A stretch of DNA of 64,000 bases from Candidatus Limimonas egerieequi (GCA_018064455.1 JAGHVH010000029.1:4683-68682); one strand, 5' to 3'. Counted from the stretch's first letter, positions 2,808 through 64,000 are shown. Numbers and translations are program-made. The notes: generated by a model not told the origin, from the sequence alone.

Positions 2808-2884
2808 TGTGATTCCCCCATTTCATTCTCTGATACATATATTAAAATGTAATGAAGTTACAAAAGATACTAGTAATAATTACA

Positions 2885-2921
2885 AAAAAGTTAAAAAAGC
2901 CCCAGCGACGCTGGGGCTTTA
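2885..2921 (-). terminator. rho-independent terminator after rpoD
   Basis: GC-rich hairpin aagccccagcg/cgctggggctt, followed on the minus strand by a T-run. Confidence 0.6.
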
Positions 2922-2924
2922 GAA

Positions 2925-4022
2925 TTAGTCAAGGAAGTCCTTGAGTTTCTTGGAACGTGAAGGATGACGAAGTTTACGGAGTGCCTTCGCCTCAATCTGA
3001 CGAATACGCTCACGAGTAACGTTAAACTCCTTACCAACTTCTTCAAGTGTTCTTGGATGTCCATCCTCAAGACCAAAGCGAAGAGAAAGAACCTTTTCTT
3101 CTCTTGGAGTGAGTGTCTTGAGTACCTCAGCAAGCTGCTCCTTGAGGAGTAACATTGACGCAGCATCAGCTGGTGCTAATGCATCATCATCTGGGATAAA
3201 GTCACCAAGATGTGAATCTTCCTCTTCACCGATAGGTGTTTCAAGAGAAACTGGTTCCTGAGCTACGCGAAGGATTTCACGTACCTTTTCAACAGGCATA
3301 TCAAGTTCCTTGGCAATCTCTTCAGCCGTTGGATCACGACCGTTCTTGTGAAGAAGGATAGAGTTTGTCTTCTTAACCTTGTTGATAGTCTCAACCATGT
3401 GAACTGGGATACGGATTGTTCTTGCCTGGTCAGCAATGGCACGTGTGATTGCCTGGCGAATCCACCATGTTGCATATGTTGAGAACTTAAAGCCCTTTGT
3501 AAAGTCAAACTTGTCTACTGCCTTGATGAGGCCAAGGTTACCCTCTTGGATAAGGTCAAGGAAAGACATTCCACGACCAACGTATCTCTTTGCAATAGAT
3601 ACAACAAGACGAAGGTTTGACTCAGCAAGCTTTTTCTTTGCTTCCTCATCGCCCTCAGATATACGGATAGCAAGGTCGATTTCCTCCTCTGGTGTAAGAA
3701 GTGGAACTCTACCAATTTCCTTTAAATATACCTTAACGGGGTCATCCATTGCTGCATTCTTGTTTGCATTATCAACTGCACCAAGCTCAACAGCCTTTGG
3801 CATTTCAAGATCGAAATTGAGGGATTCGAGAGCGGCATCGCCAAGGTCATCGATAATCTCGATGCTGTTCTGCTCGAGAGTTTCGTAGAGCCTGTCGAGC
3901 TCATCCATATCCATATCAATTTCGACAATTGCGGCATCAATGTCATTTGTTGACAATCTGCCCTGTGCTTTGCCCTTTTCTACAAGGGCAGAAATGACAT
4001 TGCTCTTTTTTTCTTCTGCCAT
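2925..4022 (-). CDS. rpoD: primary RNA polymerase sigma factor (sigma-70/SigA)
   Basis: Contains regions 1.2 to 4. Motifs include [60 protein letters not shown] and [20 protein letters not shown]. Sits in the classical dnaG-rpoD arrangement. Confidence 0.95.
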
Positions 4023-37845: not shown

Positions 37846-38049
37846 TGTAAATTTCCCCTTAAATTTCAACAGAAAATCTCAATTTTTTATTGAAAATACA
37901 TAAATTATTCTATCATTGCTACTAACCTTTGTCAATTTTATTATTAAATATTAATAATAAAAATTACAAAATATGTTAAATACTTGTATACTTTTATTAA
38001 AAAGGTGTTATAATATATTATGTATTACTATGTATTGAGAGGTAACTTT

Positions 38050-41000: not shown

Positions 41001-42030
41001 AAACAATTGTACCCTTGATAGGGTTAAGGAATACTTCCACAAGGAAACAAATCCAACATCTTTCAAAATCGAAGTTCAAGCCAAGCCTTCACGTAAGGTT
41101 AGCCGTTATAACTTCTACTCTGCTACTTATTCTATCCAAGCAGATTCAAACAAGATTCTTCTTATCGTAGAAGATGTTACAGAAGAAAAGATCAAGGAAG
41201 GTTCTTCAATTGTTCGTCATTATGCTACTGATGTTGCATTTGCAAACACCTATGACCGAATCAGTGTAATCAACCTTGACAAGGATGTATTTACATTGGC
41301 TACTTATCCACAAAATGGTAAGAGAAAAGCCAACGTTTCAGAAGGCAAATACTCAGTTCATTTTGATCAGAAACTTTCCGAAATGATTAAAGAAGAAGAT
41401 TTAAACACCGTATCAACGCTCACTTCTCTAGAAGGTCTTAAAAACTTCTATAACGATACATCTACAAATGAATTTAAATTCATTTTCCAAGAGCGCGTAT
41501 CTCCTGATTCGGATGAATATCACTGGAAGGAATCTCTTCTTGTATCTACGCCTGCAGCATATGGTCAAGATAGACAAGTTTATATTTTCCTTAAGGACAT
41601 TGATGATATTCGTGAGACAGAGAAAAATCTCAACGAATATGCTCACAGGCTCAGTTATTCACTTGCAATGTTTGACTATGCTTACACTGTGAACTGTGAC
41701 ACAGAAGCTGTCGATATCATTGGTGGTCTTCACTTTGAAAACGAGTTGTTTGAGAATGACAACTTGACCTATAACGATATCACAACAATTGTTAAGAACA
41801 CAGTTATCGCAGAGGATAGCCAAGCGGCATTTAGAAGACTCTCTTACATAGATGAGCTCATGGATCACTTCTCAAATCACCCAGCAATCCTTACACGAAT
41901 CTTTAGGGCGCAGGACCCAGATAAGAGATTTGTTGAAGTAACAATCATCTATGGTTCACGAGAGCACTCACTCACTTTCTTCATCAGAGAACTCAACAAG
42001 AACTTAATCGATGAGGTCAATGAAGCATAA
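38050..42030 (+). CDS. large membrane sensor: extracytoplasmic domain + degenerate GGDEF + EAL + four C-terminal PAS-like modules
   Basis: TM1, a ~270-aa extracytoplasmic region, then TM2. The GGDEF-fold domain has SGDKF at the active-site position. EAL motifs are GEALIRW, ELEFTEG, DDFGSGYSSL, KLDK, AEGVE and QGY. About 570 aa of repeated PAS-like segments follow. The ATG at 38050 is preferred because it is preceded by gagagg. Confidence 0.85.
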   Translation: MPVHEKASKIAKDSILTISLAGLLVVAYLLILMYTYNSLTQAAENEILKSTSNASVSIARIIDVDHSQVEMLAGELTAKYDELNPNRALDMETIKGEMMDFLKENKPVDSLLTTFFFSDATFVNSLGQTGEIKDFDDFTKKFSNSQIFVTDIYNQNYENCVHFYSQVKNLNGSTIGYLTTTYKFDDVLSNCYDVAEKVNGLHNVMFTSNGSVIINTDSKGSSFESVTNLYEYLKKNKYNGHLPSAEEPQSSTSINTFYTDISKNIIAIAPIPDMQGLYIGRIMPTSAMFATTGKLIVFMTLASFLFFFVLIVIGYRYYKSLTETSNRIKNIAYTDPLTGYANFAKFKEDCEDILTTETDKTFFMTCCDMVGFRYINDAFGYDTGDEILLQIAQEMDSLLNDDEIFARISGDKFVILTERNFANTEDEMFVYQLADRISSIGPLAKNHIRIEVQMGIYKILPEDLEDLSINALYDRSLVALYSIGHTDSTAAEYDAAIYDEQIERKDIESRMHQALKDGEFRVYVQPKYRTSNAKLAAGEALIRWIDPNKGIVPPIKFIPLFEQNRFVHDVDLYVMEVIARFQRMRLNEGLPVVPISLNISPVEFTMPGFRQSYISIKDKYDIPDRLIELEFTEGIFFDDEELFKDVIREFHEHGFSCSMDDFGSGYSSLNILKDLPVDVLKLDKLFFRESENTSRDRSIIRSVVAMARSLNIKTVAEGVETLDVVEFLKLIGCTLIQGYIYSKPLPLTEFEEKLNTENIDTDDEFEFDFDKFEVVPLDMPLSSSIDDSLRKTYAGIVEINAGGNIYHMYYPGERDVQFEPIPERGFYTSFYEDLIPKYVHPKDIEKVKKALNVMALTKHFKSNSDLNIEYRHMRKDGNYSWMKFHIIKATGGREDSQIYFGYFNIIDDYKETEESLAAAQNRFAAAYSDINGVVFELDAESGRVDILETHSSLLSSVKDVHDYTQLFGFICEFLLHPDYKMIVENNCTLDRVKEYFHKETNPTSFKIEVQAKPSRKVSRYNFYSATYSIQADSNKILLIVEDVTEEKIKEGSSIVRHYATDVAFANTYDRISVINLDKDVFTLATYPQNGKRKANVSEGKYSVHFDQKLSEMIKEEDLNTVSTLTSLEGLKNFYNDTSTNEFKFIFQERVSPDSDEYHWKESLLVSTPAAYGQDRQVYIFLKDIDDIRETEKNLNEYAHRLSYSLAMFDYAYTVNCDTEAVDIIGGLHFENELFENDNLTYNDITTIVKNTVIAEDSQAAFRRLSYIDELMDHFSNHPAILTRIFRAQDPDKRFVEVTIIYGSREHSLTFFIRELNKNLIDEVNEA

Positions 42031-51696: not shown

Positions 51697-52194
51697 CTAT
51701 TTGTCGATTCTTTCGTTTTCTTTCTCAAGGTCTTCCATAAACTGGTGAAGTGTCTGAACAAGCAAAAGCGTTTTAACATTACCAAGAGGCAAACTAGAAA
51801 GGATTCCCTTTGGAACATTTGCCAATTCCTTTTTGAGTTCAAGCCCTCTTTCCGTCAAGAACACTTGCATATTACGCTCATCTTTTTGATCGCGCTTTCT
51901 CTCAACATATCCAACCGTTTCTAACTTCTTAAGAAGCGGAGTCAAAGTACCAGAATCAAGGAACAACCTCTTACCAAGTTCCTTGACGTTTACGCCATCC
52001 TTCTCCCACAGTGCCATCAATGTGATGTAACCCGTATAGGTCAAATCATAGGGATCAAGAAATGATTTGTACCTTCTAATTACCTCTTTTGACGACACGT
52101 AAAGTGAGAAGCAAAGTTGGTTATCAAGTTTTTGCAATTCATCATCTGGGATTGCCGAAAGGGCCAATCCAGCGAATTTGTTTTCCTTAGCCAT
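51697..52194 (-). CDS. ohrR: MarR-family organic-hydroperoxide-sensing regulator (OhrR type)
   Basis: LDNQLCFSLYVSSKE (the conserved sensing-Cys context) and YLDSGTLTPLLKKLE..GYVERKR...DER closely resemble OhrR. I prefer the ATG at 52194 (MAKENKF). Confidence 0.75.
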   Translation of the reverse strand: MAKENKFAGLALSAIPDDELQKLDNQLCFSLYVSSKEVIRRYKSFLDPYDLTYTGYITLMALWEKDGVNVKELGKRLFLDSGTLTPLLKKLETVGYVERKRDQKDERNMQVFLTERGLELKKELANVPKGILSSLPLGNVKTLLLVQTLHQFMEDLEKENERIDK

Positions 52195-52253
52195 TACTTC
52201 ACCCGCTAAATAAAAATACATATTAATTGTAAACAATTTATGCAGGAAATTCA

Positions 52254-52287
52254 ATAATAAAAGGGAGCCTTTCGGCTCCCTTTTTAC
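52254..52287. terminator. bidirectional terminator hairpin at the core/island junction
   Basis: aagggagcc-tttc-ggctccctt flanked by an A-run and a T-run. Confidence 0.7.
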
Positions 52288-52829
52288 TAATTCAGTTCTT
52301 CAAATTTAATGTTATTATCCGTAGCGTATTTCTCTACTTTTGAATTCTTTTGAGCACAAATCATTGCATTTGTATCAATAAAAACACAATCTCCAAATAA
52401 TGTATCTGGATTATTTATTATTACTTTTTTCAAACTTTTGCACTCTGCAAATGCCCATGAATTAATTTGATAAACACTTTTCGGAACTACTACAGTTTCA
52501 ATAATTTTATTGTGCACAAAACAAGTTATATCAATTTTTTTTACAGATATATTCTCAATTTCATTAGGTATTTCTATTTCAGTTTTGTTTCCAATATAGT
52601 CAACTATTATTACTTCTGCTTTCGCATCATCAATGTAATACTTGTAACCATCCAAAGTCGTTTTAATTCCAAGTGTCTCTTCTTGCTCTACGATATTAAA
52701 TTTATCGTTGCTATTCTTAACCGCTGGAGCAACTATAATTTTATTTAATAAAAATGCAGAAAACGACACTAAAACAAATACTAATATAGAGAGAACTACC
52801 AATTTCCTTGTAATCAGTTTACTCTTCAT
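52287..52829 (-). CDS. membrane-anchored BspA-type leucine-rich-repeat protein
   Basis: N-terminal TM (LVVLSILVFVLVSFSAFLL) followed by LRR_5-like units (IEIPNEIENISVKKIDITCF; VVVPKSVYQINSWAFAECKSLKKVII). ATG at 52829. Confidence 0.6.
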   Translation of the reverse strand: MKSKLITRKLVVLSILVFVLVSFSAFLLNKIIVAPAVKNSNDKFNIVEQEETLGIKTTLDGYKYYIDDAKAEVIIVDYIGNKTEIEIPNEIENISVKKIDITCFVHNKIIETVVVPKSVYQINSWAFAECKSLKKVIINNPDTLFGDCVFIDTNAMICAQKNSKVEKYATDNNIKFEELN

Positions 52830-53442
52830 AAAGGTTGCCCTCTTCCATTTTAAGAATAATGTCACAAACACTTTCCAAATCTTCTTTATGATGAGTTGTC
52901 AATATGATTGTTGCACCTTTTTCCTTTTCGTCATGAATTATATTGTACACCAACTTGACGCCTGCTGTATCCAGAGCATTCGTTGGCTCGTCCAACAGAA
53001 TAATCTTCGGATGTTCAAAAATAGCTTGAGCAATATTCAAACGTTGTTTCATACCAAGAGAATATTTTTTTACCTTTAAATCAGAGTTTAGACCTACTCT
53101 TTCTAAACTATCACTAATATCCGAATCGGTTGCGACTTTCCTAATTTCGCTAAGTATCTTTAAATTATCAAATGCATTATAATTTGGAAGCAAACGCATA
53201 TTTTCAATAACAATACCCAAACCTTGAGGGAAAGAAATATCTTTGTGTAATTCTACATTATCTATTTTGACAGTTCCGCTAGTTGGAACAATCAAACCTG
53301 CAACAGCACGAAGTAGCATAGTTTTTCCAGAGCCATTTGTTCCATATATTCCATAGACCGTGCCATCATTAAAAGAATAATTGATGTTATTTAAAACCGT
53401 TCTTTTTTTAAAATCTTTACTGTAATTTATTAGTTCAATCAT
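52819..53442 (-). CDS. ABC transporter ATP-binding protein (short, 207 aa)
   Basis: Walker A GTNGSGKT, signature LSLGMKQR, Walker B ILLDEPTNALD and H-loop TTHH. Confidence 0.9.
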   Translation of the reverse strand: MIELINYSKDFKKRTVLNNINYSFNDGTVYGIYGTNGSGKTMLLRAVAGLIVPTSGTVKIDNVELHKDISFPQGLGIVIENMRLLPNYNAFDNLKILSEIRKVATDSDISDSLERVGLNSDLKVKKYSLGMKQRLNIAQAIFEHPKIILLDEPTNALDTAGVKLVYNIIHDEKEKGATIILTTHHKEDLESVCDIILKMEEGNLYEE

Positions 53443-53451
53443 ATTGTCACC

Positions 53452-54132
53452 TTAAATTATATCAATTTTTTTTAATTTCTTTTGTGAAATAAATACGAGT
53501 ATTAAATTGATAATCATAGCCCATAAACATAAAAGAGTTGATAGCCTATCAAAATTAATAAAAATAATATTTGGAAAAAATATCAAGGTTGCAAGGGTGC
53601 TCTTTCCAAAATTAATTTCAATCAACATATCTATAAAATAGGAAAAGTATAAAATAACCAAAGTTATTATTAAAGAAACTGGTGCGTCATATGTAAGTTC
53701 AAAGTAATGTTGGAGTAGTAGTAATGCATTAATTGTAAGATAATGGCAAAGAACAGCAACAATAATTATCTCACAATCAAATTGACTAATTTGTCGCATT
53801 TGTAAAATTAAATAATTCACTAAGCACTGCGCGGCAACTAATAAAAGCGTATTTTCTGAGATTTTTTTCAAGCTCACAACTAAGGCCTTGTTTCTTTTTC
53901 TACATCTAGATATAACTAATTGCCCATAATCTATTAACCACATTTTGCTACTATCCATAGATACAATTAACAAACCAACAATTGGTGCACTATAAACCAT
54001 TAGATATATGATGTTTATATTCGTGTAGTCAATTCCACTTATAAAAGCAATCGCATCGCATCCTTGTTGATAAAAAAATGCTGTTTGCAATAAAGTAAGA
54101 ATTATAATGATCAAGTAATTACTTCGTTTCAT
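53452..54132 (-). CDS. polytopic membrane protein (putative ABC permease component 3)
   Basis: About 6 hydrophobic helices. Overlaps the upstream gene stop. I recognise no family motif. Confidence 0.55.
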   Translation of the reverse strand: MKRSNYLIIIILTLLQTAFFYQQGCDAIAFISGIDYTNINIIYLMVYSAPIVGLLIVSMDSSKMWLIDYGQLVISRCRKRNKALVVSLKKISENTLLLVAAQCLVNYLILQMRQISQFDCEIIIVAVLCHYLTINALLLLQHYFELTYDAPVSLIITLVILYFSYFIDMLIEINFGKSTLATLIFFPNIIFINFDRLSTLLCLWAMIINLILVFISQKKLKKIDII

Positions 54133-54832
54133 CAATAAAGTCCTTTTTTCTATGTAATATTAGCGCTAACAAAAATATAGCTAAAGAGGTAAAGATATTT
54201 CGAAGCAACACCATTCCCACTTGATAATAAGTATTCTGTTTAAATAGTAAGTCATAATAAACTGAAACATCATCACAAGGCATCCAATTTAATAGTAAAT
54301 AATTTTTAACTATGACTGCCTCAACAAAATAAAGTAAGAATGTCAATAAAAGGGATATGTTTTTTTCAAAAAAGTTATTAAATATTGAAAAAATAAAAGT
54401 ACATCTTAAATAGTAGATTGTAATTGTTATAACATTTATTAGCCCATAAAATAACAAAGATTTAGCACTTAACTTTGCATTAATTACTATTAGCCCTATA
54501 GCATTAATCAATTCATGAATGCACGCTATAACAAAACAAATGATAGTATTACTAATAAGCTCGTTAAAAACCAATCTATCCCTGGTTTCATATCTACTTG
54601 GAAAGTAATTATTAGAAAAATAGTAACACGAAACAAGTAATGGAATAATTGGTACAACGATTAAATAATTCACTCCGCTATAATTATATTCAAGTAGATT
54701 TATAGTCATATCACTTATTGAATTAGAAATAAGATCTTTAAATATTAAAGCAATCCATAAAACACAAAACGCCAACAACCAAAAGACACCCAATTTAATC
54801 AACAATTTGGTTTTTATACGACAAGTCATCAT
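54119..54832 (-). CDS. polytopic membrane protein (putative ABC permease component 2)
   Basis: About 6 hydrophobic helices. The ATG pair at 54832/54829 is preceded by ggagaa. Overlaps its neighbours. Confidence 0.55.
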   Translation of the reverse strand: MMTCRIKTKLLIKLGVFWLLAFCVLWIALIFKDLISNSISDMTINLLEYNYSGVNYLIVVPIIPLLVSCYYFSNNYFPSRYETRDRLVFNELISNTIICFVIACIHELINAIGLIVINAKLSAKSLLFYGLINVITITIYYLRCTFIFSIFNNFFEKNISLLLTFLLYFVEAVIVKNYLLLNWMPCDDVSVYYDLLFKQNTYYQVGMVLLRNIFTSLAIFLLALILHRKKDFIDETK

Positions 54833-55589
54833 TTTTTGTTCTCCATATAACACAAACAATTGTTACTAATATATGCGTGGCTATACAAGCAATATAAACT
54901 GGTAAAATATCTGATAAATTGTATTCCGAAAATGGCTGTATCGAGAGCATTATTGATTTTCTAGGTATAAAGAATATGTACCAAATCAAAAAAGATGCTA
55001 TATATACTTTTTTTCTATCACCAAACGCAAGCGCCATACTACTCCCTGTCATACCAATTGTTCCACTAAGGATAGATGCAACAAAAATAAATACGATATT
55101 AGTAAGCAATGGTTTTCTTAAGCACACTTCAGCTAGACTTCCGAACTTAAATAAATCTGATTCAAAAGTTTTAGTAACACCATATAAAAGAATATGTGAA
55201 ACAATCAAATTTATCATTAAAGAAACAAAAATAATTGCAAATGATATAGTAAACCCCTTAATCAGCATAGTTTTTATGTATTTCTTTTTCCCTATTTTTG
55301 TAATTTGCACTATATCATTTCCAGTTGAAAAATCTTCAAAAATATCATCTGAAACGATAAACAGTAAACTAATCGGTAACATCCAAAAAACCAACGCATG
55401 AAAATTAGGACCAATTCCAGTGAAAGCCAAAAAGACGCTCAAATTAGCATTGTATGGCATTCCACCAACAGGAATATTTTTTATCTTATAAAAAATATCA
55501 AAAAGCATTACAGATACTATAATTATGATTAAAAATAGTTTACGTTTATCGTTGAAAATTCTTATTACACTATACATATACCACTCCAT
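54795..55589 (-). CDS. polytopic membrane protein (putative ABC permease component 1)
   Basis: About 6 hydrophobic helices. The start is uncertain (55589 or 55577). Confidence 0.55.
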   Translation of the reverse strand: MEWYMYSVIRIFNDKRKLFLIIIIVSVMLFDIFYKIKNIPVGGMPYNANLSVFLAFTGIGPNFHALVFWMLPISLLFIVSDDIFEDFSTGNDIVQITKIGKKKYIKTMLIKGFTISFAIIFVSLMINLIVSHILLYGVTKTFESDLFKFGSLAEVCLRKPLLTNIVFIFVASILSGTIGMTGSSMALAFGDRKKVYIASFLIWYIFFIPRKSIMLSIQPFSEYNLSDILPVYIACIATHILVTIVCVIWRTKNDDLSYKNQIVD

Positions 55590-55623
55590 AATAGAGTAGG
55601 GCAAAAGCCCTACTCCTTCCTAA

Positions 55624-56061
55624 TTATAATAATGTGCCTGTCTCTTCATCCCAGTATCCTGATACAACATATGCAGTTGCAACATTATTATTGTTACGAA
55701 CACCAAGGTCCGTATTTTTGTGATAAGCATTATTATAAACACCTTTATAATATTTGCCATTTCCACAAATCACATTTACAACATCAGAATATTGTGTGCG
55801 TGTTATTCCTGAACTAGCAAGCCAATAAATAGCGATAGCCGATGTCCCTTCAGCATTATAAGTCATATTCACCATCCAAGGATTATTTGTCTTATCAGAA
55901 TCACGATATCTTGAATCTCCACAATAATTGTTAGCGCAATTCTTTTTCATAGTAAATGAATATGGGAAATTATCCTCTGCTGCGAATGCAGAAAATGATA
56001 AAGCCATTGACAAAACCACTATTACTACTAATAACAAACTAATCTTTTTTGTACTTTTCAT
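55624..56061 (-). CDS. small secreted protein (145 aa, Sec signal peptide, Cys-containing, Asn/Tyr-rich)
   Basis: Signal peptide MKSTKKISLLLVVIVVLSMALSFSAFA|AEDN. The mature part is beta-rich with 3 Cys. I recognise no family. Confidence 0.6.
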   Translation of the reverse strand: MKSTKKISLLLVVIVVLSMALSFSAFAAEDNFPYSFTMKKNCANNYCGDSRYRDSDKTNNPWMVNMTYNAEGTSAIAIYWLASSGITRTQYSDVVNVICGNGKYYKGVYNNAYHKNTDLGVRNNNNVATAYVVSGYWDEETGTLL

Positions 56062-56122
56062 TTTTTAAAATTCCTTTCTCTTATATTTTTAATTTCCTAA
56101 AAATACTGCCCTCCTTTCAATA

Positions 56123-56163
56123 GTCTCTAATTAATATGTGTAAAAAATACATCAAAATATTAC
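56123..56163 (-). promoter_or_regulatory. conserved promoter-like motif, copy 1 (upstream of the 145-aa secreted protein/ABC operon)
   Basis: The minus strand reads GTAATATTTTGATGTATTTTTTACACATATTAATTAGAGAC. It shares GTAATATTTTG-N-T-N3-TTTTTT-N-CAC-N-TATTA with copy 2. Confidence 0.45.
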
Positions 56164-56183
56164 AAATGACTTATCAGTTATTC

Positions 56184-56215
56184 ACAACAAAAAGGGAGCC
56201 GTTTGGCTCCCTTTT
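56184..56215 (-). terminator. rho-independent terminator after the 134-aa secreted protein gene
   Basis: aaagggagcc-gttt-ggctcccttt with a T-run on the minus strand. The stem is nearly identical to the hairpin at 52261-52282. Confidence 0.7.
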
Positions 56216-56220
56216 CCTCG

Positions 56221-56625
56221 TTAATATGCATACTTAACTACCGTCTCTGAATCCGATGCAGTATAAGCTGTGAATGTTACTTTCAACCTATATGTACTCA
56301 ACGGAGAGGTTAACTTACTCTCATCCATTGAAGCATTGCGAGAATCAAAAGTTTCTTCCCACGTTTGAACAGTAGAATAAGATCCGTTACTCAACTTTTG
56401 AAGTTCCATTTTAATTTTTACTCGCTTAACACTTGAAGAACCCGTAATATTTGATGTTACAGACGTTGACACTGTACCTTGATCAATTCCATAGTTTAGT
56501 ACAGCAATATACGTATAACGTAATGGTTCTTCCTTTCCTGTTCCGTTAGCAAACACAGTCACACTTAGGGTGACTAGCAATATGAATGCTAATACAATTG
56601 CGCCTAACACTTTTTTTAATTTCAT
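56221..56625 (-). CDS. small secreted protein (134 aa, Sec signal peptide, Ser/Thr-rich beta-type)
   Basis: Signal peptide MKLKKVLGAIVLAFILLVTLSVTVFA|NG. The mature part shows alternating beta-strand-like patterns. I recognise no family. Confidence 0.6.
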   Translation of the reverse strand: MKLKKVLGAIVLAFILLVTLSVTVFANGTGKEEPLRYTYIAVLNYGIDQGTVSTSVTSNITGSSSVKRVKIKMELQKLSNGSYSTVQTWEETFDSRNASMDESKLTSPLSTYRLKVTFTAYTASDSETVVKYAY

Positions 56626-56660
56626 AAAAGCACATCCTTACATTTAGTACGTTAACTAAT

Positions 56661-56702
56661 AACGTCTGTATAATAAGTGCAAAAAAACAAGCAAAATATT
56701 AC
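56661..56702 (-). promoter_or_regulatory. conserved promoter-like motif, copy 2 (upstream of the 134-aa secreted protein)
   Basis: The minus strand reads GTAATATTTTGCTTGTTTTTTTGCACTTATTATACAGACGTT. Its TAA is the anti-sigma stop codon. Confidence 0.45.
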
Positions 56703-57388
56703 AACTCTTTTCTAGATTCTACAATTTTTATTAATGCTTCAATTGTTATTTCACCGTTTTTATCATAATCAGCAAAAATGCTATGATGGTATTTACCGGA
56801 ATTCCATACCAACGTAATGCCTTTATCACCTATTATGTAAAATGCATCTAATCCATTTATGACAGTTGTCCCAGAAGCATCATTTTCAGTATCTAATGAA
56901 GAAACGCTATCTTTATTCTTTGTTGTATAAATAAAAATACTATTTCCGTCATCATTAGAGAAAGATATTGACTGGCAATTCTTTTCCTGCTTATCCTCTA
57001 CCAACTTATAGCCATCAGGAACATATGTATACTGTGCATACAAAAAATCATTTGCATTTTCATTAACGCCAAAAGTTATATCTGTACTTTCTTTAAAATA
57101 AGAAAAAATGAAATCTCTAAATGGTTCAATAGCGAATGCTGCGATTGAGAAAAACACCAAAACAATAATTGCAACGAGTGCAATCTTTACTGCCTTCCTA
57201 ATCTCAATATGTTTAACCTTTTTGCTATTACCATCTAGCTTTCTTAAGAAAGCAACCATTTGTTTCCGTTCTTTTTTGGACAAACATTCCATTGGCTCAT
57301 TTTCGATTTTTGCAATATATTCATCCAATATTTGATTATTAGCTTCAATACAAGCTTCTCTTAAAACTGTATCGCTTTTACTTTGCAT
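56699..57388 (-). CDS. anti-sigma factor-like membrane protein with DUF4367-type extracytoplasmic domain
   Basis: Cytoplasmic N-terminus, single TM (IALVAIIVLVFFSIAAFAI), then a C-terminal domain with YVPDGYKL...VINGLDAFYI...LVWNSGKYHHSIFA...IEALIKIVES, typical of DUF4367. TAATG overlap with the sigma gene. Confidence 0.7.
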   Translation of the reverse strand: MQSKSDTVLREACIEANNQILDEYIAKIENEPMECLSKKERKQMVAFLRKLDGNSKKVKHIEIRKAVKIALVAIIVLVFFSIAAFAIEPFRDFIFSYFKESTDITFGVNENANDFLYAQYTYVPDGYKLVEDKQEKNCQSISFSNDDGNSIFIYTTKNKDSVSSLDTENDASGTTVINGLDAFYIIGDKGITLVWNSGKYHHSIFADYDKNGEITIEALIKIVESRKEL

Positions 57389-57927
57389 TAAAACTCCTCC
57401 CCACAAAGCATAGAACAAATCATCTGTTTTCCTCTATATAATCTCTGTAAAACTAGATTTTCTGAAATAGATAATGTATCTGCAATTTCTTTTGCAGAAT
57501 ATCCATCTACATATTTCATAATTATAGGAACTTGATACTTTTCATCTAACGACCTAATAGCAGAAACAATTTCAGCAATATCGTACTTGCTATTATCAAA
57601 AGTAGCGATTTTGTATTCATCTTCGCCTGAAATCATTTCCAAAGGTTCTATATTTGTAGCGCACGTAACATTATTAATGCATATGGCACATCGCTTACAA
57701 ATAGTAACTAAATACCGTTTTTGCTTATATTTGGGAAGAGTATTAAAAGTTTCAAAATTATCAACTAACCTTAAAAAAGTATCTTGCAAACAATCCAATC
57801 TTAATGATTTATCAACCAAATAATCTCCTGCTGTTTTTACAACCAAGTATTCATACTTGGTGTAGACTTCTTCAAATTTTCTCTTGTCTTCTTCTCGTTC
57901 AAACGATTGCAAATATAGACCTAACAT
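57388..57927 (-). CDS. ECF-type sigma-70 family RNA polymerase sigma factor
   Basis: Region 2-like (FEEVYTKYEYLVVKTAGDYL...CLQDTFLRL) and region 4 HTH (YVDGYSAKEIADTLSISENLVLQRLYRGK). The ATG at 57927 is preferred. The track start at 58059 would translate through a hairpin repeat. Confidence 0.8.
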   Translation of the reverse strand: MLGLYLQSFEREEDKRKFEEVYTKYEYLVVKTAGDYLVDKSLRLDCLQDTFLRLVDNFETFNTLPKYKQKRYLVTICKRCAICINNVTCATNIEPLEMISGEDEYKIATFDNSKYDIAEIVSAIRSLDEKYQVPIIMKYVDGYSAKEIADTLSISENLVLQRLYRGKQMICSMLCGEEF

Positions 57928-57933
57928 ATTTTG

Positions 57934-57942
57934 CCCCCCCCC
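57934..57942 (-). repeat. homopolymeric G9 tract (C9 on the plus strand), 6 nt upstream of the sigma-factor ATG
   Basis: Counted directly: plus strand ttgCCCCCCCCCggtcgac. Confidence 0.9.
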
Positions 57943-58007
57943 GGTCGACTTTACGGCGTACCTACGTCGTTTGTATTTGGAATTAAATTTTAATACTTTC
58001 AAACTAT

Positions 58008-58058
58008 AACAAATCCCAACTTCAATAGTACGGAGTTGGGATTTGCTATACAAATTCA
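58008..58058 (-). repeat. conserved hairpin element, copy A
   Basis: aacaaatcccaact-tcaatagtacgg-agttgggatttgctataca. The 11-bp stem is shared with copy B. Confidence 0.7.
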
Positions 58059-58319
58059 CTTGCTACAATACAATTAGTCTAAAAATAAATATCACAATTT
58101 GGCAAAGTTTCTCTCAATTCATCAACTTAATCATCTCATGGCTGTTTAACAGACATATCAACATATTCAAAAGGTGAATTTGTATTTCTTGCCTGCCCTC
58201 TCAACAAATCTCTTAATTTGCTATCTTCTTAGTAAAGCTAATAAAAATTCTTTTCATATATTTCGCCACATTTCAATTTGCAACGACCTATAACGTTCTA
58301 CATCAAATAATACATTTAC

Positions 58320-58481
58320 TTAAGGCTTTGGTTTCGATACATTAGTATCGGTTTTAGGCGGTGACGGCGGTGCATTTTTACTTGTAGGCTGGTACCCAAA
58401 TTTACCTGGATTCGGTTGATACCTACGTTGCACAACACCTTTTCGAGGAATTCCTTTATTACATTTTTGATTGTTATTCAT
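58320..58481 (-). CDS. possible 53-codon ORF (basic, Pro-rich), translationally coupled to the upstream membrane-protein gene
   Basis: My own translation gives MNNNQKCNKGIPRKGVVQRRYQPNPGKFGYQPTSKNAPPSPPKTDTNVSKPKP. Its ATG lies inside GATGAATAA, overlapping the stop of the 58474-59091 gene. It is below the ORF-track length cutoff. Confidence 0.3.
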   Translation of the reverse strand: MNNNQKCNKGIPRKGVVQRRYQPNPGKFGYQPTSKNAPPSPPKTDTNVSKPKP

Positions 58482-59091
58482 CAATTTGTGCTCCTTTCTT
58501 AAACTCTATACAACGTATTTGATCTTTAGGAATATAAAATCCTTTGCTTTCTTCGTCAAAAATCCAATTTCCTTCATCATCAAGTTTATAGCCATTTTCA
58601 ACATAAATATCTCTTTCTTCGTAATCAGAAGAGCTAAATGATTCTCCAGAATACCAACCACGAAGAATATTGCCATCTATCATTGTAATGACAACAAAAC
58701 TCGGTTCTAGTTGTGAAAAGAAATAATCCCATGCTGATGGTATAGAATGAGTAGGGTTAAGTTTTACCCTTCGAAGTATTTTACCAACAACATCTTTGTA
58801 TTTTAACATAGAAATAGCAATTGCAATAAATGTAGCTCCAATAATTGTAATTGCAACAAGAAGTAAGAACAAAATGTATATATGTTTTGATAATTCTCTA
58901 AAGGCAATTATATATAGCCAACTCCAGCAAGCACAATTCACCACACTATAAGCAAGGCACTTTAGAAAATATATACTCTCACTATACTTTTTAGGCGGAT
59001 TTGTTTTATCAACAATTGAGTTTACAATAAATCCGGGTAATATAAATATTGTGGTAAGAAACACAACTTCCAAAGAATCTATAGTCATCAT
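58474..59091 (-). CDS. membrane protein, 3 N-terminal TM helices + soluble C-terminal domain (possibly DUF6338-like)
   Basis: TM segments VVFLTTIFILPGFIV, AYSVVNCACWSWLYIIAF and ILFLLLVAITIIGATFIAIAI. The C-terminal part reads SAWDYFF...VVITMIDGNILRGWY. RBS aaggtga. Confidence 0.55.
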   Translation of the reverse strand: MMTIDSLEVVFLTTIFILPGFIVNSIVDKTNPPKKYSESIYFLKCLAYSVVNCACWSWLYIIAFRELSKHIYILFLLLVAITIIGATFIAIAISMLKYKDVVGKILRRVKLNPTHSIPSAWDYFFSQLEPSFVVITMIDGNILRGWYSGESFSSSDYEERDIYVENGYKLDDEGNWIFDEESKGFYIPKDQIRCIEFKKGAQIDE

Positions 59092-59271
59092 TTCACCTTA
59101 TTTCATAAATTAGTCTATAGTATTTATTATTTTATTCTACGAATAATCGTTCAATAATTATATTCTCAATAAACGTCATTCATACAGCTTAATTAACATA
59201 TACGGAATACATTATTTTTGATGCGCATATTAAATTAAATCGCCATATTTACGCCATTTATGCGGTTTGTC

Positions 59272-59320
59272 AACAAATTCCAACCTCAACACAATGAAGT
59301 TGGGATTTGCCTACATTTCA
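59272..59320 (-). repeat. conserved hairpin element, copy B
   Basis: aacaaattccaacct-caacacaatga-agttgggatttgcctaca. Its 3' end on the minus strand abuts a TTGACA hexamer. Confidence 0.7.
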
Positions 59321-59352
59321 TAATACAACAATCCGCATTGTTTTTATACATA

Positions 59353-60144
59353 TTACTTTGTAAAATGAGCAACTCCAATTTTCACTGATCTATAAACAAA
59401 ATCAACTTCTAACGGGAAGATCTCATCAAGTTGTTGCATTTTTTCCATCACATTATCCACATCAAATATTATTTGTGCATTTCCTGCTTTTCTTTGAATT
59501 AATCTCAACAAAAACCATAATGGACTAATTTCTTTATTGAAATAAATATTTCCACGTCCATCCGAATTGTACTCGAATATTACAGTGTTAATATCAGAAT
59601 AGTTTAATTCAAAGTATCGTTCACCTTTTGAAACATTTACGCATTCAATAGAATTTTCTTTGAATATCCATTCTTGCTTCTTTTCTAAAAGTAATTTAGT
59701 TGGTAAACATACACAGATATTAAGAGCACAAACAAAAATCATCAATGCACAGATTATCTTTATAAAAGCATTATGCTGCGATACTATCAAATCAATATTG
59801 ATACAAATACCTACTAACAAAATTAAATTCAGAAACAGCATTATTGAATCAAAATAATTCATTCTACATTTAGGTCTGATACTAATTTCACTATAAACTA
59901 AATCTGTTTTTTCCCTTTTCCTTTCAAATTGCCTTTTAGAAATAATCCTTTGATATGCCCTAAGAAATGAAATAATATAGATTAGCAGTAAAGGCACCGC
60001 CATAAAAGGTGCAAAGAAATACATCTCATTTGTAAATTCAAAAACATTATTAGAATTATAAGGATCAAACAAATTCGAATACATAATCAACGCAAACAAA
60101 ATAAATCCACCAATTAGAAACACTAAAATTCTTGTTTTTTGCAT
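59353..60144 (-). CDS. 4-TM membrane protein with cytoplasmic C-terminal domain; putative immunity protein for the upstream RHS toxin
   Basis: Starts 13 nt after the RHS stop with RBS gaggg. This is the toxin-then-immunity position. I recognise no family. Confidence 0.55.
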   Translation of the reverse strand: MQKTRILVFLIGGFILFALIMYSNLFDPYNSNNVFEFTNEMYFFAPFMAVPLLLIYIISFLRAYQRIISKRQFERKREKTDLVYSEISIRPKCRMNYFDSIMLFLNLILLVGICINIDLIVSQHNAFIKIICALMIFVCALNICVCLPTKLLLEKKQEWIFKENSIECVNVSKGERYFELNYSDINTVIFEYNSDGRGNIYFNKEISPLWFLLRLIQRKAGNAQIIFDVDNVMEKMQQLDEIFPLEVDFVYRSVKIGVAHFTK

Positions 60145-60157
60145 TAAAATAACCCTC

Positions 60158-63100
60158 TTATTGTTTACTGATTAAACTGATAATATCACCTAAAGTAAGA
60201 GAACCTTTTCCTTGGGTGAGGTGACCTTCAAATGGAAAGACTGAATAAATAGACGGATTTATAGAATATGAATCATATTCGCCAGACGAATAAATCACTT
60301 CGTGTTCAACACCTATAATCCCTATAGATGCACCTTCGTAAAACGAATTTCCATACAAATATTCACCAATACTCGGTGTGTTTGCAAACGCAAGTGTTCC
60401 TGAAAGCGCAACATTTGGAGTACCAGTTCCTACTTGGCCAGCAAAAAGTACAATTTCATAATTACCTTTTTCATCAATTAGAAAGCCAGAGGAAAGCGAA
60501 CCGCAAACAATAAATCCTCCAGTAATTGTAACACCAACAAAAGCTGTATCTTTTTTTGGGGAAAGTGCATCAATAATAATATCATATACATCTTCGCATC
60601 CATATTTTACAGACTGTTCTCTAACTATTTCAGATAAATATTGAGATTTTGTTTCTTTTACATATTTTTTCTCGTTTTTATTCTCTTTTACCTGCGTATG
60701 CACATTTTGTTCTAATGTTGGATTACCTGGCGTATTAGTTATCCAACCTCCAAGCTCGGTTGATTTAAAATTATTCCACACATTTTTAATGTTTAATGCA
60801 ACTTTATTTCCAAAACTTTTAGCACTATTTAAAAAAACCTTAACTGAAAAATTACCACTTGGATCAACAAAGTTGATAGGATTGTTTCCAACGTAAGCGT
60901 AACTATTTCGAGTGATAGGTTTGTTGGTATAACCTTGGAAAGTATCCTTACTTTGGAACCTGTGAGTACTTGGATTGTAGTATCTAGCACGTAAATACTG
61001 AAGGCCAGTTGAAGAGTCTGTATACTCTGCATTGTACTGATAAGGATTGTTGATAAGGTTGTTGGATGCAAATGTCTTACCATAGATGTTATATGTGTAA
61101 GATACAGCTATGTTACCATTCTTGTCAGTCAGTTGAGATACAGAACCCCTACCATCATATAGGTAAGAATATGAAATGCCATTGATGATAGCGCTATTTC
61201 TGCCATTACCATAGTCATAAACATTGGTAACCGCACCATTTGAACCGTATTCAAGAAGAACCTCTGAATACTCCTTGGTTAAATCAACAACATAACCTGT
61301 TAATTCGTATGAAAACGCATTAAACGCATTGATGCCATACATTGAAAGAAGGTTCTGCTTGATTATGCTCTTATCATATTCAATATGATTTTTACCTGAT
61401 GTACTACAAGAATTAAATACCTTTTCAGCGGTTCCTGCCGTTGTCTTAACTTCCTTTTCAAGGGTATATGCTCTATTGCCAGCACCGTCATATATGATTG
61501 CTTGAATTAATGTACCGTTTTCGTATGTGGCAACCAATCTATTTTCATTATCGTATTCATATGTCTTAGTGCCCTTTGTAAGAGTAATGTTCACGTATAG
61601 CTCAATACATTTTAATGCCGAAGCATATTCCATATTGTAGCTGTTTACTTCCTTGATAAGGTTACCATTCTTGTCATATGAGTATTTGGTGATAGCCTTA
61701 AGCTTATCAACAGTCAAGGTCTTAACTGTTAACTGATCTGCCTCATTATATTCATAAGCGGTTTTATAAAGAGTGTTTTCACCCTTCTTAACCACTTCTG
61801 ATAAGCAGTTTCCATCATTGTCATATGTGTATACTGTGTCTGTTAAGCTCCAAGTTTTACCACAGTTTGTGGTGTTCTTTTCAGTAACCATAGCCACCTG
61901 ACATCTATCATCATAACTATAGAAACGTTCAGTAGTGTTTCCGCTTTGAGTAATAGTCTCTTTGACAATCATGCCAGAAAGATCATATTCATACTCAAAT
62001 GAAGAAATCTCATCATCCTTATCTTTACCAAGTAAAGTTTTATACTCTTTGATATTCTTTACAGATACAACATTATCGTCCTCATCATATGCGAGATATG
62101 TGTGTGAATCGTTTGCTCTTATAACTTCAGTGATGTTTTCATTTTCATCTCTTAGATATCTAACAGAATTACCAGATATATCAGTCATACCTATAATTTG
62201 GTCTAAGTAATCATAGTCATACTTAGCAGCCATTCCATTAGGATATTGAAGCTTTGTCAAATCACCAAGTTTGCTATATGTATATTCTATCGTAGAAGTA
62301 CCATTTGGTAAAGTTTCTTTTACCAATCTTCCAAGAGCGTCTGTCTCAAAAGTCGTTTTACCAAAGACATCTTCCATAGATGAGATATATCCATCAGCAT
62401 CATAATTGTATTTGGTGTTTTCTGTCTTGTTTTCTGTGAGTTGACCTAAAACATCATAAGCATATTCAGTTGATGTGCCATCTGCATTTTTTACTTTTGC
62501 AATCTGTGAATTCAAGTTGTATTCAAATTCACTGATATTTGAAAGTGGGTCCTTTATTGATACCTGATTTCCAACAAGGTCGTATGCATAGGTTGTTTCG
62601 TTTCCATTACCATTTACATAACTTGTCAAATTACCAACCGTGTCATACTTATAATTTGCAGTAACCACATCTCCTTCTTTTACAGAAGAAAGATTACCAT
62701 TTTTGGTATATGTGTATGCTATTTCCCTACCTACAGGGTCCTTGATGTTAGTAACATTGTAGATGGCATCATATGTATATTCCGTTGTTCCGCCTCTTCG
62801 ATTAGTAGTTGAAATGAGATTGTTCATCAAGTCATAACCATATGAAACCTCATTCCCCTTATAATCTGATTCAGCTATAAGATTGCCAACTGAGTCGTAT
62901 GTAAAGTTACGTGTCCTATGCTTAGGATTTGTTATTGAAACAACATTTCCAAGAGCATCAACTTCGTACGTATAAATTGAACCATTATCATTTACTGAAA
63001 CCAAATCGCCTCTTGCGTTATATTCATAAGTTGTCTCTTCTCCAAGTGCGTTAGTTTCAGATACCAAGTTATACATGACATCATACTTATATAATGTTTT

Positions 63101-64000
63101 CTTACCCATTGCACTTTCTAATAAAGTAACATTTGAGTTCAAATCATATGTGTATGATATAGTAGCTTCTTTTGCATTTGTTGCTGCAATCAGACGAGAC
63201 GCTTTGTCATATATGTAACTATTGTTTGCACCAGCGTTTGTGCTGTCACCAGAAAGTTGTCCCTTTTCATTAAAGGTATATGTCGTTTCAAGACCATTAG
63301 CAGCCTTCTCATTTACAACTCGACTTTCAAGGTCAAAAGTATCCTCTAAGACTGCACCATTTGGGGACACAATTTTAGTATTGTTTCCAAACTTATCATA
63401 TGAGAACTTGTATTCATTTCCTTCATAGTCAGTGTTCTTGCTAACAAGTCCAACTTTATTATATGAGAAAGTCATTGTATTACCCAAAGCATTTGTCATT
63501 GCTATTAGGTTTTCATTTGCATCATATGCATAAAGTGTGGCATTGCCATTTGCATCGATTACTTTCGATACTAAATCATAGCTATTGTACTCATAGATAG
63601 TAACAGCATCATTTTCATCTGTAGTTTTAATAAGATTGCCGTTTAAATCATATTCATACTTTGTAACATGGCCAAGTGCATCAGCTCTTGTTGAAACTAG
63701 ATTTAATGAGTTATATGTATACTTTGTAACAAAGCCGAGTTCATCTGTTATTGATAACAAATTGCCGTTTTTGTCATATGAATACTCAAGAGTGCTTCCA
63801 TTACTTTGAGTCGTCTTAACAATTTGTCCAAGAGCATCATACTCATATGAATTATTTAATCCAGAATTATTTACTTCACTTACTATATTACCGACAGTGT
63901 CATATGAATAAGTTGTTTTAAGTCCAGTCGGGTATGAAATCGACTCAACTCTATTCATATTATCATAAGTATATGCTGTTACAGCGCCTGCCTTATCAAC
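60158..64000 (-). CDS. RHS/YD-repeat polymorphic toxin, partial (N-terminus beyond the window end), with a 229-aa unrecognised C-terminal domain
   Basis: Dozens of YD repeats (e.g. YSYDTVGN, YEYDALGQ, YTYNSLNL). The RHS core end motif is RARYYNPSTHRFQSKD...YAYVGNNPINFVDPSG. The frame stays open through 63959-64000 (VDKAGAVTAYTYDN). Confidence 0.9.
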   Translation of the reverse strand, partial: VDKAGAVTAYTYDNMNRVESISYPTGLKTTYSYDTVGNIVSEVNNSGLNNSYEYDALGQIVKTTQSNGSTLEYSYDKNGNLLSITDELGFVTKYTYNSLNLVSTRADALGHVTKYEYDLNGNLIKTTDENDAVTIYEYNSYDLVSKVIDANGNATLYAYDANENLIAMTNALGNTMTFSYNKVGLVSKNTDYEGNEYKFSYDKFGNNTKIVSPNGAVLEDTFDLESRVVNEKAANGLETTYTFNEKGQLSGDSTNAGANNSYIYDKASRLIAATNAKEATISYTYDLNSNVTLLESAMGKKTLYKYDVMYNLVSETNALGEETTYEYNARGDLVSVNDNGSIYTYEVDALGNVVSITNPKHRTRNFTYDSVGNLIAESDYKGNEVSYGYDLMNNLISTTNRRGGTTEYTYDAIYNVTNIKDPVGREIAYTYTKNGNLSSVKEGDVVTANYKYDTVGNLTSYVNGNGNETTYAYDLVGNQVSIKDPLSNISEFEYNLNSQIAKVKNADGTSTEYAYDVLGQLTENKTENTKYNYDADGYISSMEDVFGKTTFETDALGRLVKETLPNGTSTIEYTYSKLGDLTKLQYPNGMAAKYDYDYLDQIIGMTDISGNSVRYLRDENENITEVIRANDSHTYLAYDEDDNVVSVKNIKEYKTLLGKDKDDEISSFEYEYDLSGMIVKETITQSGNTTERFYSYDDRCQVAMVTEKNTTNCGKTWSLTDTVYTYDNDGNCLSEVVKKGENTLYKTAYEYNEADQLTVKTLTVDKLKAITKYSYDKNGNLIKEVNSYNMEYASALKCIELYVNITLTKGTKTYEYDNENRLVATYENGTLIQAIIYDGAGNRAYTLEKEVKTTAGTAEKVFNSCSTSGKNHIEYDKSIIKQNLLSMYGINAFNAFSYELTGYVVDLTKEYSEVLLEYGSNGAVTNVYDYGNGRNSAIINGISYSYLYDGRGSVSQLTDKNGNIAVSYTYNIYGKTFASNNLINNPYQYNAEYTDSSTGLQYLRARYYNPSTHRFQSKDTFQGYTNKPITRNSYAYVGNNPINFVDPSGNFSVKVFLNSAKSFGNKVALNIKNVWNNFKSTELGGWITNTPGNPTLEQNVHTQVKENKNEKKYVKETKSQYLSEIVREQSVKYGCEDVYDIIIDALSPKKDTAFVGVTITGGFIVCGSLSSGFLIDEKGNYEIVLFAGQVGTGTPNVALSGTLAFANTPSIGEYLYGNSFYEGASIGIIGVEHEVIYSSGEYDSYSINPSIYSVFPFEGHLTQGKGSLTLGDIISLISKQ

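Follow-up and report, generated by a model that had tools for sequence, protein, structure and literature searches.

We examined a 64,000-nucleotide stretch of DNA (hereafter the window; GCA_018064455.1 JAGHVH010000029.1:4683-68682, with positions counted from its first letter) whose host is an uncultured gut Clostridium (horse or ruminant), Candidatus Limimonas egerieequi or a close relative, in the Acutalibacteraceae. Near the end of the window, an RHS gene with a Gly/Ser-rich C-terminal tip is followed by a gene for a polytopic membrane protein. The tip and the membrane protein very probably constitute a genuine toxin/immunity module. Our favored reading, with a probability of roughly one half, is that the payload acts on the cytoplasmic membrane as a beta-barrel-type toxin, judged from its composition, its predicted fold and the intramembrane nature of the partners. 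The features on which the argument turns are as follows.

60854..64000, minus strand: C-terminal half of an RHS/YD-repeat protein (Pfam RHS_repeat, TIGR01643, TIGR03696).
60901-60854, minus strand: core-terminating motif YAYVGNNPINFVDPSG (read from the sequence; end of the TIGR03696 match; drop in GC content at third codon positions, GC3).
60551..60853, minus strand: Lys/Asn-rich region of 101 amino acids (aa), private to this RHS protein (composition; absent from relatives).
60161..60550, minus strand: conserved Gly/Ser-rich putative toxin domain of 130 aa, predicted all-beta (phmmer and profile searches; AlphaFold models).
60145..60157, minus strand: intergenic spacer of 13 nt, GAGGGTTATTTTA, with the GAGGG ribosome-binding site of the next gene (sequence).
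59353..60144, minus strand: putative immunity protein of 263 aa with four transmembrane (TM) helices (open reading frame (ORF) with ATG at 60144; hydropathy).

Support for the module comes from the end of the RHS core at the motif, the fall in GC3 there, relatives of the domain that sit behind RHS core ends, a metagenomic cassette in which the domain follows a second toxin gene, and an orphan copy of the immunity gene.

The part of the RHS ORF inside the window matches PF05593 (RHS_repeat) with an E-value of 1.7e-100 over 21 stretches (Pfam; 1.5e-157 for the full protein), and the ORF matches TIGR01643 (1.3e-80) and the RHS-associated core TIGR03696 (5.2e-19; NCBIfam). The TIGR03696 match terminates at ...NNPINFVDPSG, the core-terminating motif. 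YAYVGNNPINFVDPSG closes the RHS-associated core; autoproteolysis is expected at this boundary, and it is here that tips are exchanged. GC3 is 0.41 in the RHS core but only 0.17-0.19 in the tip and 0.24 in the downstream gene. The minus-strand ORF stops at 60158 (TAA, 60160-60158), and its reading frame is uninterrupted up to base 64000, so the gene is truncated by the window edge. The remainder is supplied by contigs identical to the window (Logan contig L009, 100% identity over 14.6 kb; L010, 99.99% across the same 14.6 kb; L011, 100% over 8.4 kb), giving a complete RHS protein of 2,564 aa. At the N terminus of the full-length protein stands a Sec signal peptide of typical form (MKCKKFISVIAMILAMIMILNVPAVA); DUF6531 precedes the repeats, as does a weak LysM match. 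No type VI or type VII secretion system (T6SS or T7SS) genes lie near the RHS locus. Together, the signal peptide, DUF6531, the weak LysM match and the lack of T6SS/T7SS genes nearby indicate, at the level of sequence, a Gram-positive, Sec-exported, WapA-like RHS architecture.

The tip comprises 231 aa after the Gly of PSG, or 229 aa if counted from the Ser at 60847. An earlier interpretation of this DNA, made without database searches (the sequence-only reading), had described it as a Gly-rich domain of 229 aa. The length holds, and the peptide it quoted, FVGVTITGGF...EHEVIYS, is found verbatim in the tip; the tip is not a single domain, as only its last 130 aa recur elsewhere. The same reading's division of the tip into a Lys/Asn-rich linker and a last ~125 aa rich in Gly and small residues agrees with the composition (K 14% and N 11% in the first 100 aa; G 15.5% and S 12.4% in the last 129 aa). 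In the relatives described below, the conserved domain starts at, or within a few residues of, the DPxG-type motif (directly after it in P0010, a few residues later in P0002, P0004 and P0005), and the 101-aa Lys/Asn-rich segment is therefore private to the window protein. The first ~30 aa of this segment score as an amphipathic helix, with a helical hydrophobic moment of 0.5-0.6 over residues 4-25. Searches of Pfam and the other family libraries gave no match for it; it may serve in targeting or entry, or simply as a spacer.

Relatives of the domain are few. Pfam, NCBIfam, PADLOC, PHROGs and PDB sequences gave only noise for the tip, for either of its halves, for the immunity protein and for the C-terminal domain of the latter, and the same curated libraries gave only noise for the partner proteins of the relatives; the novelty claimed by the sequence-only reading thus stands, in that no curated family or solved structure matches by sequence. 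A tblastn search against plasmid and phage collections returned no match, and the 229-aa tip retrieved nothing when 5.8 billion clusters were searched by word index. An exhaustive phmmer search of 1.84 billion representatives retrieved four proteins (P0001-P0004), two of which, P0002 and P0004, can be aligned with tip residues ~102-210. From the 5.8 billion clusters, a profile of these two then retrieved P0005 (1.4e-31), P0006 (2.9e-6) and nothing else. P0010, which clusters with P0006 and is longer, bears the annotation 'RHS repeat-associated protein'; its copy of the domain lies directly after ...NNPVNNFDNTG. There are thus four genuine relatives (P0002, P0004, P0005 and P0006/P0010), with 26-34% identity to the domain, encoded on contigs of 0.85-3.7 kb; with the window domain, the family has five members, each its own sequence type.

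All four relatives are RHS C-terminal tips, for the most part orphan cassettes, and at their start or in frame upstream they carry the core end ...YYLQSRYYDPE.CRFINADG...MFAYC.N.P....DP.G. The query did not contain the DPSG motif, yet every relative sits behind an RHS core end, which is the strongest evidence that the similarity reflects real homology. The other two phmmer hits, P0001 and P0003, are acidic giant surface proteins of haloarchaeal type (3,300 and 3,506 aa), in which 8-9 tandem beta-rich repeats of ~95 aa match tip residues 102-176 (E = 3e-6 and 4e-4). We rejected both as compositional, as the family profile scores neither. Pattern scans of 185,579 species-representative genomes (GTDB), of JGI metagenome contigs and of IMG/VR yielded no confirmed further relative; these scans used short alignment-derived patterns and missed a known JGI member, and they indicate rarity, not absence. 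Within the window there are no further copies or orphan cassettes of the domain. Thus five sequence types are known among ~15 billion proteins, and none in the 185,579 species-representative genomes within reach of the patterns used. By sequence comparison, the 130-aa domain constitutes a tiny new family known only as RHS tips.

The gene arrangement downstream of the tip is as the sequence-only reading had it: a 13-nt spacer, a separate ribosome-binding site (GAGGG) and a 263-aa protein with four TM helices and a cytoplasmic C-terminal domain, as read from sequence and hydropathy. The TM segments lie at approximately residues 5-23, 42-62, 97-119 and 126-148. The loop between TM1 and TM2 (residues 23-41, ~20 aa) is acidic and that between TM2 and TM3 (residues 63-96, 34 aa) is strongly basic, which under the positive-inside rule gives an N-in topology with the last ~115 aa on the cytoplasmic side. 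The protein has no family match in Pfam, NCBIfam, PDB sequences, PADLOC or PHROGs, and its only relatives are near-identical copies; one of these, MBQ0015056.1, is identical, and its source is labeled as an Oscillospiraceae metagenome-assembled genome or as Candidatus Limimonas egerieequi (Acutalibacteraceae, Clostridia).

The position 3' of the domain is occupied by a same-strand gene in all five contexts, and this gene encodes a membrane protein in the four that are readable (the window and three relative lineages). The partners of L001 and of L003-L005 are membrane proteins cut by contig ends, the partner of L006/L008 is complete (~100 aa; a basic loop flanked by three hydrophobic segments), and of the L002 partner only a 38-aa hydrophobic start is visible. 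Each partner has a basic N terminus and a TM segment, the N terminus being short and hydrophobic in L006/L008, and the general layout is a basic N terminus, then two TM segments and, beyond a basic loop, one more TM segment. The partners of L001, L003 and L006 are mutually related (BLASTP, 3e-10 and 7e-4). A terminator-like hairpin, detected by a consensus scan, lies behind the window's partner gene.

59280..59303, minus strand: terminator-like hairpin of 9 pairs with a T-rich tail (consensus scan, weak evidence).

The hairpin lies 50 nt after the immunity stop codon and, on this weak evidence, would close a two-gene rhs-imm transcription unit.

An additional copy of the window's partner gene is found on L007 (ENA ERZ27247115, 1-1932), where it is 99.5% identical in DNA and retains its ribosome-binding site. 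Homology to the window starts exactly 48 nt before the toxin stop codon, the rest of the toxin is absent, and the partner gene stands directly behind a gene for a 259-aa leucine-rich-repeat lipoprotein. L007 is a single short assembly that could be a chimera; as it reads, the arrangement has the signature of an orphan immunity gene retained for protection.

The toxin slot itself is modular. On L008 (JGI 3300078498, 1-3693), the main RHS gene has a TNT NADase domain (7.6e-21) at its end, together with a Gly/Ala-rich hydrophobic stretch; a 145-aa ORF follows, and then an orphan cassette in which ~240 aa of the same core are repeated with the Gly-rich domain at the end. L003-L005 carry a truncated-core cassette behind an unrelated gene. 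As these cassettes show, the exchangeable toxin slot of RHS loci is where the domain sits. On L006, a further RHS-core fragment follows the small membrane protein, forming an orphan array.

These contexts bear out two proposals of the sequence-only reading, that the tip is a toxin payload and that its neighbor is a membrane immunity partner: the domain recurs solely as an RHS tip (in L008 as an orphan cassette behind an RHS-TNT NADase gene), a polytopic protein follows wherever the gene can be read (with a hydrophobic start in the fourth relative lineage), and an orphan copy persists with a toxin remnant. They also bear on the view that the domain is no toxin at all but a structural, adhesive or plug module beside a functionally unrelated membrane protein. 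Such a view would fit a tiny family of five sequence types and the fact that the window's membrane protein is not homologous to the partners of the relatives. It would leave without explanation the exchangeable slot after the DPxG motif and the interchange with the TNT NADase module in L008, the orphan cassettes with truncated cores, the membrane-protein gene that follows in three readable lineages (and the hydrophobic 38-aa start in a fourth), the partner gene kept alone with a toxin remnant, and the compositional break at the motif. We consider it very improbable.

Alignment of the five members (A3) reveals three conserved polar motifs.

60461..60475, minus strand: DEKGN turn (D-x-x-G-N); Asp, Gly and Asn invariant in the five members.
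60413..60430, minus strand: GTGTPN loop (G-x-G-T-P); pattern invariant in the five members.
60221..60235, minus strand: PFEGH (P-x-E-x-H); pattern invariant in 5/5 members.

PFEGH, whose conserved residues could have a structural, ion-coordinating or catalytic role, opens the last strand of the more confident of the two models described below and falls in an unconfident loop of the other. The five domains are otherwise poor in charge (10-13% charged residues) and rich in small residues (Gly 15-18%; G/A/S/T ~40%), with 9-14% aromatic residues and a positive grand average of hydropathy. In the predicted strands of all five, bulky hydrophobic residues alternate with Gly, Ser, Thr or Ala, not with charged residues.

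We ran AlphaFold2 on the five-sequence alignment in two independent runs, with the window domain and P0002 as targets. The window-domain model has a mean predicted local distance difference test score (pLDDT) of 54 and the P0002 model a pLDDT of 66 with a predicted TM-score (pTM) of 0.54, i.e., low to moderate confidence. Both models are closed all-beta meanders in which a short helix separates four long antiparallel strands from four further strands, and the top Foldseek matches of both are small closed eight-stranded barrels. The pLDDT-66 model matches Rhodococcus equi Vap proteins (5aeo, 4cv7, 7b1z), led by VapG and VapB, with TM-scores of 0.45-0.62 on target length, a probability of 1.0, a root-mean-square deviation of 4.1-5.8 Å and Foldseek E-values of 2e-3 to 4e-2. 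The pLDDT-54 model additionally matches a COG5400 barrel, the OmpA transmembrane domain and a designed transmembrane barrel, the latter two marginally (E > 0.1). Foldseek against BFVD gave nothing meaningful. Membrane barrels and the membrane-active Vap proteins both belong to the predicted fold class.

Glycine-rich toxins of another kind, the alpha-helical glycine-zipper toxins (CDI type-10 ionophores of contact-dependent inhibition (CDI) systems and the Gly-zipper families in Pfam), were considered and set aside: GxxxG occurs once, in isolation, in the domain, the N-terminal strands space their glycines by 5 in a region predicted as strand, and the Pfam Gly-zipper families gave no match.

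Activity on the membrane, which the sequence-only reading raised as a possibility and which we judge about as probable as not, is argued from the partners, the composition, the predicted fold class and the Sec-exported delivery. The L006 partner is ~100 aa and nearly all membrane-embedded, so that its contact with the toxin would lie largely within the bilayer. More generally, the partners are essentially intramembrane (the outer loops of the window partner measure only ~20 and 7 aa), and a neutralizing contact would be made most easily inside the bilayer. The low charge and the alternation of hydrophobic and small residues fit lipid-exposed or self-associating beta structure better than a soluble enzyme. 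Finally, a Sec-exported Gram-positive RHS protein would show its tip directly to the membrane of a neighbor, with no import step required.

On this basis the module might work as follows. The RHS shell would enclose the tip until self-cleavage at the DPSG boundary frees it. The domain would fold, or refold within the membrane, into a glycine-rich beta-barrel of eight strands whose surface bears almost no charge, and would enter the cytoplasmic membrane of neighboring Gram-positive cells. The membrane potential would then collapse through ion leakage or oligomeric pores. In the producer, the TM helices of the 263-aa protein would bind the inserted toxin in the plane of the membrane and so give protection. 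The Lys/Asn-rich segment may aid docking on anionic envelopes or on a membrane receptor.

Several points weigh against a membrane-acting beta-barrel. The domain has no homology to any characterized toxin that would support this mode of action. The models are of low or moderate confidence and were built from five sequences only, and neither has a Foldseek match in the PDB at E <= 0.001. An eight-stranded barrel would have no wide lumen and could conduct only through oligomers or lipid defects. Catalysis or ligand binding would account equally well for the invariant Asp, Asn, Thr, Glu and His, and the sizeable cytoplasmic domain of the window partner could bind a cytoplasmic toxin. Moreover, the window's 263-aa protein has no similarity to the partners of the relatives (BLASTP; hhalign probability 0.2%), and their equivalence is thus one of gene position and topology only. 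The sequence-only reading had asked whether the domain, on any delivery scaffold, is always followed by homologs of this membrane protein: the relatives are all RHS-borne, and the gene behind them, where readable, encodes a membrane protein that is not homologous to the window's own. Divergence this large is common among immunity proteins. A match to a known toxin family, one of the results that would have told against that reading, was not found by sequence.

Two competing explanations also draw on the conserved polar residues. In the first, the domain is an envelope-directed enzyme or tight binder at the outer membrane face, acting on lipid II, peptidoglycan or teichoic-acid precursors, or lipids, and the partner shields the substrate or captures the toxin. 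The invariant polar residues fall in the D-x-x-G-N, G-x-G-T-P and P-x-E-x-H loops, the last two of which would lie at the same end of the barrel, to judge from the strand order in the models. The Sec signal peptide and weak LysM match also suit such a protein, as extracellular action needs no import, and membrane-anchored immunity proteins accompany envelope toxins in Gram-positive bacteria (e.g., TelC/TipC). The partners, however, expose almost nothing outside the membrane for such a role, the window protein having only its two short outer loops and the L006 protein being mostly TM; the domain shows no similarity to a known hydrolase, transferase or lipid II-binding family; and its very low charge and Gly/Ser-lined surface would be unusual in a soluble enzyme. 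Overall, we regard this explanation as unlikely.

In the second, the domain is an enzyme of new fold (a nuclease, or a nucleotide or protein modifier) that is imported, acts in the cytoplasm, and is neutralized by the basic loop or the C-terminal domain of the partner. Most characterized tips of RHS, WapA and CDI proteins are enzymes that act in the cytoplasm (PMC3482391, PMC11630599), a Glu and a His are invariant, and the window partner offers both a ~115-aa cytoplasmic domain and a 34-aa basic loop. The private 101-aa segment could be an entry domain, as in CdiA-CTs (PMC11630599), but it is wholly missing from the relatives, and the partner of at least one relative has no cytoplasmic domain at all. 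The composition is unlike that of soluble enzymes and no motif of a known catalytic family is present. Membrane-embedded immunity is also rare for cytoplasmic toxins. These considerations make a cytoplasmic enzyme a rather doubtful candidate.

The closest known systems are, functionally, Tse5-CT/Tsi5 and Ntox25/Tse4; for the carrier, WapA; and among solved folds, the Vap barrel. Tse5-CT of Pseudomonas aeruginosa is an Rhs pore-former with a two-TM immunity protein, Tsi5 (PMC9637101). Like the window tip, it is an RHS-encapsulated C-terminal tip with a DPxG boundary, no predicted enzymatic function and an integral-membrane immunity protein, and it inserts into the membrane and depolarizes cells (PMC9637101). 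Tse5-CT is, however, predicted to consist of TM and amphipathic alpha-helices and reaches its targets through the T6SS of a Gram-negative bacterium, whereas the window domain is predicted all-beta and is carried by a Sec-exported RHS protein of a Clostridium; depolarization, observed for Tse5-CT, is a proposal for the window domain.

Pore-forming colicins and CDI ionophores have small inner-membrane immunity proteins (in the latter case CdiI) with 2-4 TM helices that neutralize the toxin in the bilayer. The window partner has no sequence relationship to these and possesses an extra ~115-aa cytoplasmic domain of its own. The immunity proteins of CDI ionophores are thought to act inside the bilayer (PMC11630599), and so is Tsi5 (PMC9637101).

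Ntox25 (PF15530; CdiA-CT2 of E. coli EC93) and Tse4 are ionophores that AlphaFold2 predicts to be beta-barrels (PMC11630599). They dissipate the membrane potential (PMC11630599, PMC8190604, PMC12169545), and the Tse4 immunity protein, Tsi4, is located in the inner membrane (PMC12169545). They resemble the window domain, as modeled, in being small, mostly-beta, sequence-variable tips of polymorphic toxins, each with a cognate immunity protein (CdiI, Tsi4), and they establish beta-barrel ionophore payloads as a real category, one to which the window domain might belong. Their carriers differ (CdiA or an Hcp-loaded T6SS effector in Proteobacteria; RHS in a Clostridium here). None of the five members matches PF15530 in hmmscan at E <= 5, and FGPY, the motif that defines Ntox25 (PMC3482391), is absent from the five aligned sequences. 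By profile and motif, the window domain falls outside Ntox25.

The Vap proteins provide the nearest solved fold. Their barrels have eight strands, one helix inserted between strands 4 and 5, and many conserved glycines, and VapD has a glycine-rich 'bald' surface that binds detergent (PMC4118825). VapA and VapN act on membranes and neutralize the pH of vacuoles; of the Vap proteins, VapA, VapB and VapN were tested and all partition into Triton X-114 (PMC10100859). The modeled family shares with the Vap barrels (VapA/B/D/G) the order of secondary-structure elements, the richness in glycine and a predicted uncharged surface. In contrast, Vap proteins are secreted by an actinomycete as virulence factors in their own right, with host vacuoles as their target; RHS proteins do not carry them as tips, and no immunity genes accompany them. 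The Vap family PF05526 gave no Pfam match, and a profile search of PDB sequences at E <= 10 retrieved no Vap chain; because there is no sequence signal, the likeness is a structural lead suggested by the models, not family membership. It is conceivable, if improbable, that the domain is a true Vap-fold, glycine-rich beta-barrel ionophore, with the Glu/His pair lining an ion or proton path and the partner neutralizing it in the bilayer.

WapA of Bacillus subtilis (mentioned in PMC12169545 and PMC12704120), a Gram-positive, Sec-dependent RHS system of contact-dependent inhibition, combines a Sec signal at the N terminus and elements for wall association with an RHS shell and a variable C-terminal toxin, and its immunity gene follows directly. 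The full-length window RHS protein resembles it in its signal peptide and weak LysM match. Its tip is unlike WapA tips in having no nuclease features and a polytopic partner. The characterized WapA tips are tRNases with soluble immunity proteins.

The module lies in a compositionally distinct part of the window. GC content is ~0.43 in the first ~50 kb (1-50000), which carry housekeeping genes, and ~0.32 in the last 12 kb (51700-64000), which look like a horizontally acquired competition island. Besides the RHS and immunity genes, this low-GC island contains genes for a MarR regulator, an LRR_5 protein, an ABC ATPase with DUF2705 and two further polytopic membrane ORFs, a secreted DUF2712 protein, a sigma-70/DUF4367 pair and a DUF6338 protein. 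Downstream of the immunity gene, at a distance of 261 nt, lies the gene for the DUF6338 protein (9.8e-28; 58474-59091, minus strand), in which hydrophobic segments at the N terminus precede a soluble C-terminal portion; its layout resembles that of the 263-aa protein, with no sequence similarity seen, and it could be a second, orphan immunity gene. At 53452-56061 (minus strand), the secreted DUF2712 protein (145 aa; 55624-56061) lies beside three polytopic membrane ORFs (one of them DUF2705) and the ABC ATPase, a cluster that resembles a bacteriocin with ABC-type immunity or export genes. A secreted ORF of 134 aa with no known family lies at 56221-56625. Upstream of the RHS gene and outside the window, L009 and L010 (1-2091) carry two genes divergent from it, a SLFN_AlbA_2 + HATPase_c_4 protein and a PRTase-CE protein, which may be defense-related neighbors. 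In the housekeeping part, two divergent GGDEF-EAL proteins (805 and 1,336 aa) are encoded around a short intergenic region (35452-42030).

RHS, WapA and CDI loci are familiar neighbor-killing systems in which new tips are regularly found, and the domain described here is, as judged from sequence, a new payload family within this familiar kind of system. What sets it apart is its rarity, the lack of a match to any described toxin family, a possible connection to the Vap proteins, and a predicted character that is neither enzymatic nor that of a helical pore-former but that of a small, near-uncharged beta-barrel; a partner that is membrane-embedded in every lineage where it can be read is also unusual. 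If the domain is indeed a beta-barrel ionophore, it would add Gram-positive gut anaerobes to the known sources of non-helical membrane toxins, so far a small set (Ntox25, Tse4). It would also offer a compact 130-residue scaffold for studying the unaided entry of a beta-protein into the cytoplasmic membrane, and it might illuminate how Vap-type barrels act on membranes. Were it a Vap-fold ionophore, it would be the first beta-barrel membrane toxin known on a Gram-positive, Sec-exported (WapA-like) RHS system, and it would provide an evolutionary or mechanistic link between the Vap virulence proteins of Rhodococcus equi and interbacterial polymorphic toxins.

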